DNA from: Candidatus Profftella armatura
Lineage (GTDB): Bacteria; Pseudomonadota; Gammaproteobacteria; Burkholderiales; Burkholderiaceae
Assembly (NCBI RefSeq): GCF_000441555.1
Contig: NC_021885.1
Location: 427,400 to 459,399, forward strand
Direction: 5' to 3'
Length of the DNA stretch: 32,000 bases
The notes beneath the pieces are model-generated. The model was not told the DNA's origin and made no database searches. It saw nothing but the letters and a program-made list of their open reading frames with translations. The position numbers and the translations under genes are program-made. Positions within the stretch are counted from its first letter, which is position 1. Each line of letters begins with the position of its first letter. Positions 16,409 through 18,755 of the stretch are shown in pieces.

Positions 16409-18337
16409 ATGAAATTTATTAATAAAAAAACAAAAATCAAGAATAAAAAAACAAAAGAAACCTTATTAAAGAATGCATTTTCTTTTGATATAAAATCTAA
16501 TAGTAGAGAAGAAATCGAAAATTTAAGAAAAAAGTTTAAAATATTAATTAAACTCGGTAAAGAACGCGGTTATTTAACTTTTTCAGAAATTAATGATTTT
16601 CTTCCAGAAGATATTATCGATCACGAAATAATTGAAAGTATTATTAAAACCTTTCGATATATGGATATTTCTGTATCAGAACACGTATTAGACACAGAGA
16701 CATTAATGCTTTCTAATATTACTAGTGATGATGATGTTGAAGAAGCAACAGAGGCAGCATTATCTACAGTTGATTCTGATTTTGGTAGAACAAAAGATCC
16801 AATAAAAATGTATATGAGAGAAATGGGCTCAGTTGAATTATTAACTAGAGACGGAGAAATTGAAATAGCTAAACGTATTGAGGAAGGTTTAAAAGATATG
16901 ATTCATGCTATTTCTTCGTGTCCCACTACTATTATGGAAATATTAATAGCAGCAGATAAAATTTCAAAAAATGAAATTAAGATAGATGAAATAGTTGACG
17001 GTTTAATTGATAAAAATTTTTCTAGTAATAATCGTGTTATTAAAGGTAATAAAAATAATAATGAAGAAAAAATATTGATTGAATCTAGTTCAGCTGATTT
17101 ATCAACAGAACAATTGGAGAAATTAAAATATGAATCTTTAATAAAATTTTCTAATATATCTTTTCATTTTGATAAAATGAGAAAAGCATTTGAAAAAGAA
17201 GGATATAATTCAGAATCATATATAAAAGCACATAATAATATTTCTAATGAAATGCTAGGTATTCGATTTACAGCAAAAAGTATTGAAAAATTGTGCGATA
17301 CCTTACGAAATCAAATTAATCAAGTTACTCAAATAGAGAAACAAATTTTAGAAATTGTTGTCAATAAATGCGGAATGCCACGTTTACATTTTATTAAAGT
17401 TTTTCCAGAAAATGAAATTAATTTAAATTGGGTAGACAATGAAACTAAAATTCAACATGATTATAATTTGATTTTATGTCGAAATATTCCTTCCATAAAA
17501 GAATTACAGCAAAAATTAATTAATTTACAAACAGATATTGTTTTACCATTAAATGATTTGCGTGACATAAATAGAAAAATGATTGCTGGAGAAATGAAAG
17601 CTCGTAAAGCAAAAAGAGAAATGACCGAGGCTAATTTAAGATTAGTAATTTCAATTGCAAAGAAATATACTGATAGAGGTCTTCAATTTCTTGATTTAAT
17701 TCAAGAGGGAAATATTGGTTTAATGAAAGCGGTTGATAAATTTGAATATCGTCGTGGTTATAAATTTTCTACTTATGCAACATGGTGGATAAGACAAGCA
17801 ATTACTCGATCAATTGCAGATCAAGCTAGAACTATTCGAATTCCAGTTCATATGATTGAGACAATTAATAAAATAAGTAGAATATCTCGTCAAATTTTAC
17901 AAGAAACCGGTTCAGAACCAGATCCTTCAGTAATTGCAATTAAAATGGAAATGCCAGAAGAAAAAATTAGAAAAATTATGAAAATTGCAAAAGAACCAGT
18001 TTCCATGGAATCCCCTGTAGGGGATGATGAGGATTCTCATTTAGGTGATTTCATTGAAGATGAAAATATGTTAGCACCTTCAGATGCCGCATTAAATGCA
18101 TCAATGCGTTCTGTAGTTAAAGATATTCTTAATTCATTAACACCAAGAGAATCTAAGGTTCTTCGTATGCGTTTTGGTATTGAAATGTCAAGTGATCATA
18201 CACTAGAGGAAGTCGGTAAACAATTTGATGTAACAAGAGAAAGAATTCGACAAATAGAAGCAAAAGCATTACGGAAATTACGTCATCCTTCTCGATATTA
18301 TAAATTAAAAATTTTTTTAGAAGGAAAAAAAAATTAA
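16409..18337 (+). CDS. rpoD: Primary RNA polymerase sigma factor sigma-70
   Basis: The 642-aa ORF has [39 protein letters not shown] in region 2 and [30 protein letters not shown] in region 4. Confidence 0.97.
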
Positions 18338-18402
18338 AAAAATAATTTTAAAAATTAATAATTTTTAAAATTAATATAATAGTTATATACTATGTAATAT
18401 TA

Positions 18403-18749
18403 GGGCCTCTAGCTCATGATTGGTTAGAGCAGCGGACTCATCAAAATGGTGACTTTTTTCAGAAATGAAAATTGAAAAAAAATCTAATATTAAAGATTTT
18501 AAAAATTGGGTTAATTCAGGGAAGCCTAAGTTTATAATACAAATATGGTAATCCTGAGCCAAGTCAAAAATACATTTTTGAAAGGTGCAGAGACTAGCGG
18601 AGAGGTAAAGTCCTCTTAATTACCGATAAAAACGCCCAACACCTGAACAATAATTTATACTATTGAAGGTGATGAGATAGTCCAGTAAATAGTGAAAACT
18701 ATAAAAAAACTGAATCCGTTGGTACCGTGTTCGACTCACGGGAGGCCCA
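18403..18749 (+). tRNA. tRNA-Ile(CAU), lysidine type, interrupted by an intron (exons 18403-18441 and 18713-18749)
   Basis: The joined exons give a 76-nt cloverleaf. Acceptor is GGGCCTC/GAGGCCC with C4-G69 and C5-G68, anticodon stem GCGGA/TCCGT, loop CTCATAA, T arm CCGTG-TTCGACT-CACGG. It resembles E. coli ileX more than the Met tRNAs. Confidence 0.9.
18442..18712 (+). ncRNA. Group I self-splicing intron (IC3-like, Azoarcus tRNA-Ile type), 271 nt
   Basis: The intron is inserted directly 3' of anticodon CAT. The internal guide GTGA (18449-18452) pairs with exon TCAT, giving a U-G pair at the splice site. The terminal nucleotide is G at 18712. Core blocks are CCTAAG/TATGG, GAGCCAAG, AAGGTGCAGAGACTAG, ATAGTCCAG and an ATAGT-GAAA-ACTAT hairpin. 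Confidence 0.85.
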
Positions 18750-18755
18750 TAAAAT

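Follow-up and report, generated by a model that had tools for sequence, protein, structure and literature searches.

We analysed a 32,000-nucleotide (nt) stretch of contig NC_021885.1 from Candidatus Profftella armatura, hereafter the window, in which a tRNA gene with anticodon CAT is split by a 271-nt intron. P. armatura is a betaproteobacterial symbiont of Diaphorina citri with a chromosome of 457,571 base pairs, and the GC content of the window is 23%. The genes rpsU, dnaG, and rpoD precede the split tRNA, and rsmB and ahcY follow it on the opposite strand. The RpoD encoded here is identical in sequence to the P. armatura protein. From the exons, the fold of the intron, and comparison with homologs, we consider it very likely that the tRNA-Ile2 gene of Profftella is interrupted between tRNA positions 36 and 37 by a functional group I self-splicing intron. 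The gene and its upstream neighbor are laid out as follows:

18403 to 18441, plus strand: 5' exon of tRNA-Ile2(CAU), 39 nt, ending in the anticodon CAT (ARAGORN)
18442 to 18712, plus strand: group I intron, 271 nt, 30.3% GC, with its terminal guanosine (omega-G) at 18712 (Rfam RF00028, covariation, and comparison with a second lineage, Profftella_Dco)
18713 to 18749, plus strand: 3' exon of tRNA-Ile2, 37 nt (ARAGORN and homolog comparison)
16409 to 18337, plus strand: rpoD, ending 65 nt upstream of the split tRNA (NCBIfam)

The boundaries of the gene were established from its spliced product. An initial annotation of this locus had proposed that two half-tRNAs form a cloverleaf, and all the coordinates and sequence blocks that it quoted are present in the sequence. 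When 18403–18441 and 18713–18749 were joined by hand, ARAGORN returned a clean 76-nt cloverleaf with anticodon CAT. By default, the same program reported five other tRNAs and did not detect the split gene. With introns allowed, it placed a tRNA at exactly 18403–18749 with a 271-nt intron, in agreement with the proposed span; however, it set the splice site 2 bases 5' of the true one and called the gene tRNA-Gln(CTG). A U at position -1, an omega-G, and the anticodon CAU coincide in a single registration, with a 39-nt 5' exon and an intron that ends at 18712. Because group I chemistry requires U-1 and a terminal G, we preferred these boundaries, which are those of the initial annotation, over the ones from ARAGORN. 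The insertion point is directly 3' of the anticodon (CUCAU/AA), and the intron ends in G, both as originally described. The 5' exon has one difference in the D loop (A for C) from the genes of Pseudoduganella, Neisseriaceae, and Methylophilaceae. A blastn comparison of the unspliced gene with Escherichia coli genomes gave no match, as expected for a split gene.

The exons are those of tRNA-Ile2 rather than tRNA-Met. They are 96% identical to the intron-bearing tRNA(CAU) of Pseudoduganella and 92% identical to an intronless tRNA(CAU) found 34 nt downstream of rpoD in Herbaspirillum, and the annotated E. coli gene that they match best over the full length is a tRNA-Ile with anticodon CAT. The tRNA-Met and tRNA-fMet of Profftella, which are located elsewhere, are only 63 to 68% identical to the split tRNA. 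The acceptor stem (GGGCCUC/GAGGCCC) contains C4-G69 and C5-G68, which we take to be the TilS determinants known from E. coli; C4-C5 is common to other Ile2 genes, and Profftella tRNA-Met has G4 and A5. Moreover, rpoD lies directly upstream of tRNA(CAU) in loci from Rhodocyclaceae, Sterolibacterium, Chitiniphilus, Neisseriaceae, Methylophilaceae, and Herbaspirillum. Judged by sequence and gene order, the split gene is a tRNA-Ile2 and, given the shared linkage to rpoD, a syntenic ortholog of tRNA(CAU) genes in Betaproteobacteria.

This gene fills a gap in the decoding set of the symbiont. Published Profftella genomes list 34 tRNAs with no annotated AUA decoder. The supplementary gene table of the Profftella_Dco paper includes one tRNA-Ile (GAT) and two tRNA-Met, and nothing is annotated between rpoD and rsmB (PMC7643613). 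By sequence, the two annotated tRNA-Met genes look like the elongator and the initiator. The gene for TilS is present in both Profftella lineages (PADco_2710/SSDC_01405), with a ratio of nonsynonymous to synonymous substitution (dN/dS) of 0.14 (PMC7643613). No other tRNA-Ile2 or tRNA-Ile(UAU), and hence no intact tRNA-Ile(CAU), appears in the published Profftella annotation, which sets the scope of this statement. AUA makes up 48 per 1,000 codons (4.8%) in the genes of the window and is the seventh commonest codon, confirming an early expectation that it would be very frequent. Taken together, the exon matches, synteny, tilS, the annotation gap, and AUA usage identify the gene as an unannotated tRNA-Ile2 and the only visible decoder of AUA, in line with the decoding role first ascribed to it. 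It is very probably the sole one, and with no other such tRNA annotated and AUA so common, translation should depend on splicing.

The intervening 271 nt match the group I intron family. The covariance model RF00028 (Intron_gpI) aligned to 18449–18704 over its full length (model positions 1 to 253) with 82.2 bits (E = 1.2e-19) against a gathering score of 50. By comparison, the Profftella_Dco intron scored 75.7 bits, introns of free-living relatives scored 85 to 93, and Azoarcus-type introns scored 53 to 55. With intron positions numbered as the window coordinate minus 18441, we assigned the following paired (P) and joining (J) regions, in which all pairs of helices P1 to P9 are canonical:

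18449 to 18452, plus strand: internal guide sequence GUGA, pairing with exon UCAU (18438–18441) to form P1, with a U-1.G8 wobble at the 5' splice site
18456 to 18471, plus strand: P2, UUUUCA-GAAA-UGAAAA (intron 15–20/25–30), GAAA-capped (RNAfold minimum free energy [MFE] structure and covariation)
18479 to 18500, plus strand: P2.1, an AT-only hairpin AAAAUCU/AGAUUUU in J2/3 (intron 38–44/53–59)
18506 to 18511, plus strand: P3 5' strand, UUGGGU (intron 65–70), pairing with 18634–18639
18515 to 18585, plus strand: P4-P5-P6 domain (P4, intron 74–80/111–117; P5, 83–92/100–108; P6, 118–129/134–144), including J4/5, J5/4, and a CCUAAG...UAUGG motif in P5 (18525–18530, 18544–18548)
18586 to 18596, plus strand: J6/7 and P7 5' strand, UGC-AGAGACUA, with a G149-C242 pair and a bulged A150 (P7, intron 149–155/237–242)
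18598 to 18625, plus strand: P7.1-like domain between P7 and the 3' strand of P3 (P3'), intron 157–184 (covariation), with an outer stem CGG/CCG, an inner hairpin AGAGG-UAAAGU-CCUCU, and a conserved 3' internal loop UAAUUA
18634 to 18639, plus strand: P3 3' strand, GCCCAA (intron 193–198)
18640 to 18671, plus strand: P8, CACC...GGUG with an AT-rich distal stem (intron 199–211/220–230)
18672 to 18683, plus strand: J8/7 and P7 3' strand, AUGAG-AUAGUCC, nearly invariant in long-form introns (defined below)
18689 to 18702, plus strand: P9, AUAGU-GAAA-ACUAU, GAAA-capped (intron 248–252/257–261)

The elements expected of a group I ribozyme are thus all present: the U.G wobble in P1, a P3–P9 core with an invariant P7, the conserved joining regions J4/5, J6/7, and J8/7, the CCUAAG/UAUGG motif of P5, GAAA tetraloops on both P2 and P9, and a terminal G at intron position 271. 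By homology, the G149-C242 pair and bulged A150 are predicted to form the guanosine-binding site. Unconstrained RNAfold recovered P2, P2.1, P3 to P6, P8, and P9 (z = -2.7) but not P7, which is part of a pseudoknot, or the outer CGG/CCG stem of the P7.1-like domain; the ensemble frequency of the MFE structure was close to zero. The initial annotation had already recognized the pairing of GTGA with exon TCAT, the CCTAAG...TATGG motif, and the GAAA-capped hairpin at 18689–18702, and these now stand as P1, the P5 motif, and P9. We discarded its pairing of TTTTTTCA with TGAAAAAA (intron 13–20 with 32–39) as an alternative to P2, for which RNAfold, homology, and covariation favor the GAAA-capped hairpin. 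It also overstated composition when it called the intron the most GC-rich non-tRNA stretch of the window, as 12.5% of 271-nt windows, mostly coding, are richer.

To evaluate the fold, we aligned 14 homologs, including those of the lineage in the window (Profftella_DC) and Profftella_Dco, with MAFFT and scored 70 pairs against controls with slid pairing partners and 500 shuffles. Standard pairs occupied 91.9% of structure cells, compared with 33 to 45% in the slid controls. Both sides had changed in 38 of the 70 pairs, and the covariation score was 0.44, compared with 0.06 to 0.11 in the controls; none of the 500 shuffles reached the observed values. Compensatory change was found in P2, where all six pairs had changed on both sides (e.g., UCGUCA/UGGCGA in Methylophilaceae), in P3 (three of six pairs, with 100% of cells paired), in the distal stem of P6 (seven of seven), in P8, in P9 (five of five), and in the P7.1-like domain (five of eight). 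The four basal pairs of P8 were paired in 100% of homologs. P7 was invariant. The strand comprising J6/7 and the 5' side of P7 was the same in all 14 homologs and, except at one position that is randomized there, in an Azoarcus template as well; the GUG of the guide was likewise invariant (14/14). P2.1 was absent from the other 12 homologs and occurred only in the two Profftella introns, which keep an AAUCU/AGAUU stem with a changed loop.

The intron is also conserved between the two Profftella lineages. We reached the Profftella_Dco locus through RsmB homologs, not RpoD homologs, and found the same split gene with a 274-nt intron and exons that are 97% identical. The two introns show 13 mismatches in 268 aligned sites (4.9%), compared with 84 in 446 four-fold sites (18.8%) of rpoD, rsmB, and ahcY (Fisher's exact test, P = 3e-8), meaning that the intron evolves about four times more slowly than neutral sites. 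The differences outside pairs lie in linkers or in the loops of P2.1, P5, the insert, or P8. Six of the 13 substitutions fall in pairs; three keep pairing, two make up a coupled change, and one breaks the terminal A-U of P2.1. In P3, the differences exchange U-A for U.G and U.G for U-A. At the base of P5 (18524/18549; intron G83/U108), Profftella_DC and Methylophilaceae have G.U, but A and C stand there in Profftella_Dco and in every other homolog. This change on both sides between the two Profftella lineages looks like an isosteric exchange of a G.U for an A.C wobble.

We compared the intron with relatives from a pattern scan of species-representative genomes, which yielded at least 120 loci, neither Azoarcus nor Profftella among them, and from one metagenome scan. 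These scans contained at least 19 further tRNA(CAU) introns at the same site, in two forms. The compact form, 202 to 205 nt long, spans the gap from P7 to P3' with 3 nt (GAC) and forms P3 from GGUGUC/GGCACC; its members come from Rhodocyclaceae, Sterolibacterium, Neisseriaceae, Chitiniphilus, and Pseudoduganella. The long form spans 235 to 275 nt, with a P3 of NNGGGU/GCCCNN, C in J6/7, (A/G)UGAGAUAGUCC at J8/7, and a structured insert between P7 and P3'. Inserts of 33 to 55 nt in this place recur in tRNA-Phe, Asn, Thr, His, Ser, and Ile(UAU) introns from many phyla, but Azoarcus-type and tRNA-Leu introns in the survey have only the 3-nt GAC. The segment measures 37 nt in Profftella. Because an insert in the same place is common in introns from many phyla, the hairpin between P7 and P3' is, to judge from this distribution, an inherited peripheral domain and not an AT-rich expansion.

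Much is nonetheless shared with the intron of Azoarcus BH72. Both interrupt tRNA-Ile(CAU) in the same bacterial class and at the same point after a 39-nt 5' exon. They agree in U-1/omega-G, in the GUG of the guide, and in both strands of P7; in each, P5 contains CCUAAG/UAUGG, and P2 and P9 are closed by GAAA loops. They differ in length (271 nt in Profftella versus 205 nt in Azoarcus), in P3 (UUGGGU/GCCCAA versus GGUGUC/GGCACC), in J6/7 (C versus U), and in J8/7, where Profftella has AUGAG and Azoarcus-type introns have AAGGC ahead of AUAGUCC. The stretch from P7 to P3' is GAC in Azoarcus, as against a structured domain of 28 nt and a linker in Profftella. Profftella P8 lacks the second CCUAAG/UAUGG motif of Azoarcus, and P2.1 is extra. 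In sequence, the Profftella intron is 60% identical to the published Azoarcus ribozyme (from PMC8890501) with 86 nt unaligned, in contrast to five compact betaproteobacterial introns that are 82 to 90% identical to it. By these features, the Profftella intron is of the long form and not of the Azoarcus type.

Among the matches listed, the nearest relatives are three introns from free-living Methylophilaceae (Ca. Methylopumilus-like; L127, L130, and L132). They are 82 to 83% identical to the Profftella intron overall and 85% identical over shared core columns, and they join it in a clade with 100% bootstrap support, separate from a compact-form clade with equal support. They are collinear with Profftella from P1 to P9, including the GCGGAGAGG...CCUCUUAAU(A/U)ACCG domain, and their exons are nearly identical. 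Unlike the Profftella intron, they have no P2.1, are richer in G-C in P2, P6, P8, and P9, and measure 244 to 246 nt, and the 3' CCA of the tRNA is encoded. Relative to them, Profftella has replaced G-C with A-U on both strands of P2, P6, and P9, has an AT-rich distal P8, and has gained the AT-only P2.1 (~26 nt). The Methylophilaceae introns sit on contigs of 37 to 44% GC, with rpoD upstream in L130; RpoD on one of these contigs is 92% identical to that of Ca. Methylopumilus turicensis.

The setting itself is known. Williams (2020, bioRxiv 10.1101/2020.01.27.920355) uses "Ile2.5Ug" for tRNA-Ile2 spliced after anticodon-loop position 5 with U before the intron and G at its end, and counts it among four classical settings in which group I introns interrupt bacterial tRNA genes. 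The geometry in Profftella is exactly the same. That work, as far as accessible, treats Ile2.5Ug as one class, whereas here the class comprises two deeply divergent lineages, and Profftella is not mentioned in the accessible main text. The plastid and cyanobacterial tRNA-Leu(UAA) intron differs in tRNA and insertion site and carries no insert between P7 and P3', the surveyed tRNA-Leu introns having the 3-nt GAC there. We presume a resemblance between the Profftella insert and P7.1/P7.2 of subgroup IA introns (phage T4 td, Twort), which occupy the same topological place; we treat this as a lead only, and the rest of the Profftella core looks IC3-like, unlike IA introns.

If the intron acts as its family does, exogenous guanosine bound at P7 would attack the phosphate after U-1. 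The terminal G would then take the P7 site, and attack on the 3' splice site by the freed 5' exon would ligate CAU to AA. After splicing, the tRNA would receive CCA, and TilS would convert C34 to lysidine, allowing AUA to be read. Several points weigh against a functional self-splicing intron. We infer splicing activity from sequence, P10 is weak (only two possible pairs by eye), and the pairing-compatible substitutions between the Profftella lineages are too few for significance alone. That AUA has no further decoder is taken from the published annotation. In addition, P2, P2.1, and the distal parts of P6 and P8 are nearly pure A-U, which may make the RNA fold poorly on its own and call for a chaperone or cofactor.

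This last point leads to a different reading, that the intron is functional but not autonomous and that its A-U-rich periphery needs a symbiont or host protein in vivo. Group I introns of organelles are well known to splice with the help of proteins, and the modest RNAfold statistics given above fit such a need. Against it, G-C pairs are kept in the catalytic core (P3, P4, P7, and the base of P8), and the window holds no hint of a dedicated cofactor; we regard dependence on a protein as unlikely, though worth entertaining. A decaying relic that has lost splicing, with AUA read in another way, would suit the extreme AT bias and genome erosion of Profftella and the omission of the gene from the published annotation. 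However, the intron has changed about four times less than four-fold sites, all positions invariant in the 14 aligned homologs are intact, and the Rfam score is not eroded. Purifying selection on tilS, which has no other annotated substrate, and the usage of AUA and conservation of the exons described above point the same way, leaving decay scarcely probable.

The initial annotation had favored yet another history, in which a compact IC3 intron of the Azoarcus type grew to 271 nt in Profftella through three AT-rich hairpins. Its observation of core blocks shared with Azoarcus (AAUUC...CCUAAG, UAUGG.AA....GAGCCAAG, AGAGACUAG, and AUAGUCC) and of a compensatory change in P4 (AGGG/TCCT for GGCG/CGCC) is real, and the tRNA, insertion site, and U-1/omega-G are indeed those of Azoarcus. 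Among the three hairpins, AATCT/AGATT (P2.1) is truly a Profftella-specific, AT-only insertion. But the supposed first one is an ordinary P2, and AGAGG/CCTCT belongs to the domain between P7 and P3' that is present and covarying in GC-rich relatives of other phyla. P3, J6/7, J8/7, and P8 follow the long-form consensus, and neither the 60% identity nor the separate, fully supported clades would be expected of a true Azoarcus-type intron. Growth from a compact intron is thus very unlikely, and we retain the reading of a functional, long-form group I intron.

As to origin, the Profftella lineage may have acquired the intron laterally, from a different betaproteobacterium, with an empty site or a compact intron being replaced, instead of inheriting it vertically; we rate this possibility at a little under even. 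Herbaspirillum, among the closest free-living relatives by RpoD (74%), is intronless at the syntenic site; Pseudoduganella, of the same family, carries the compact form; and the nearest introns among the matches listed come from Methylophilaceae, a family with an RpoD that shares only 59% identity with the Profftella protein. On the other hand, identities of 82 to 90% across orders also occur within the compact clade, so the 85% core identity is compatible with slow vertical evolution plus losses. Long-form introns may also exist in Oxalobacteraceae, the survey having covered at least 120 loci, and presence in both Profftella_DC and Profftella_Dco shows only that the intron predates their split. 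We dropped an earlier candidate, transfer from Bacteroidota, which had been raised when the long form was first seen in Cytophagales and a gammaproteobacterial metagenome-assembled genome (MAG), in view of the closer Methylophilaceae relatives with beta-type exons.

Within Oxalobacteraceae, Herbaspirillum hiltneri has an intronless tRNA(CAU) downstream of rpoD (L122, 5257–5335), and the compact intron of Pseudoduganella (L027) has no rpoD within its 8-kb locus; intron presence, type, and gene position are therefore patchy in this family. It is possible, though doubtful, that the two divergent lineages at one nucleotide of tRNA-Ile2 reflect repeated invasion or replacement without a homing endonuclease, and that Profftella then froze one of them and now relies on it wholly to read AUA. 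If true, such site-specific invasion would call for a route such as reverse splicing, and an organelle-like symbiont would need a ribozyme for one step of the genetic code.

The surroundings of the gene gave additional observations. The AT-rich spacer at 18355–18392, upstream of the tRNA, is identical over ~38 nt in Profftella_DC and Profftella_Dco and contains a promoter-like site, TTTAAA-16-TATACT; a promoter scan found three promoter-like sites, not above the chance expectation of 2.5, and a terminator scan found none. Among the at least 120 unrelated intron-bearing tRNA loci, 25 have the intron core on the rpoD strand less than 900 nt downstream of the rpoD 3' end. Their tRNAs are Thr (8), Asn (7), CAU (4), Leu (4), and unidentified (2), from many phyla (e.g., L047, L016, L085, and L037). 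The tRNA gene after dnaG-rpoD thus seems to be a favored home for group I introns, whatever the identity of the tRNA. The 3' CCA is not encoded in the gene of either Profftella lineage (18749–18752: GGCCCA, then TAA) and is encoded by all free-living relatives examined; a CCA-adding enzyme should accordingly be needed for maturation. Intron-mode ARAGORN also called tRNA-Gln(CTG) at tRNA(CAU) loci L014, L019, L038, L068, and L089, which it missed without the intron option, and the miscall is likely a systematic annotation error for intron-split tRNA(CAU) genes.

The survey also revealed variation around the long-form core. Introns in tRNA-Thr and tRNA-Asn, largely from Patescibacteria (L018, L050, L074, L016, and L003), have two hairpins between P7 and P3', of which the first, like the linkers, is nearly constant (UCCCGAAAGGGAGUAC, a variable hairpin, and GGAAGC); this version calls to mind P7.1/P7.2 of subgroup IA. 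Fulvivirga and a Cyclobacteriaceae MAG (L038, L068, and L089) carry a long-form intron at the same loop position of a different CAU tRNA (Met or Ile2), which has a GGCGGGG... acceptor stem and an A31/C39 mismatch in the anticodon stem; these introns have an extra hairpin 5' of the guide sequence (GGCUAAAAAAGCC). L006 (JAIPUR010000020.1), labeled as a Methanosarcinaceae archaeon MAG, has a long-form core with the insert CUGG-AGACUG-GCGA-CAGUCU-UAAUAA-CCAG, and ARAGORN found no tRNA around this core. The contig is probably a mis-binned bacterial one, although a group I intron truly from an archaeon would be noteworthy.

Bacterial tRNA group I introns are numerous. One survey of GenBank assemblies as of January 2017 mapped more than 5,000 of them. 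With thousands known and the setting classical, the initial description of this case as unusual was overstated, and general knowledge of group I introns is left unchanged by it. What is new is the lineage of the Profftella intron, its unannotated status, and its likely essentiality; our literature search turned up no mention of an intron in Profftella and no report of a tRNA gene with a group I intron in the reduced genome of any insect symbiont. For annotation, the finding fills a gap, as the missing tRNA-Ile2 was concealed by its intron, which leads standard tRNA finders to pass over the gene or call it tRNA-Gln. For RNA biology, a natural variant of 30% GC with GC-rich relatives offers a test bed for how far the group I fold tolerates replacement by A-U pairs. 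The plastid tRNA-Leu(UAA) group I intron has been kept in an essential tRNA through massive reduction of an organelle-like genome. Like it, the Profftella intron suggests that a ribozyme of the self-splicing type can persist as a required step of translation, here in the 460-kb genome of an insect symbiont. Because Profftella is an obligate symbiont of the vector of citrus greening, an essential, symbiont-specific RNA-processing step would be a conceivable target.

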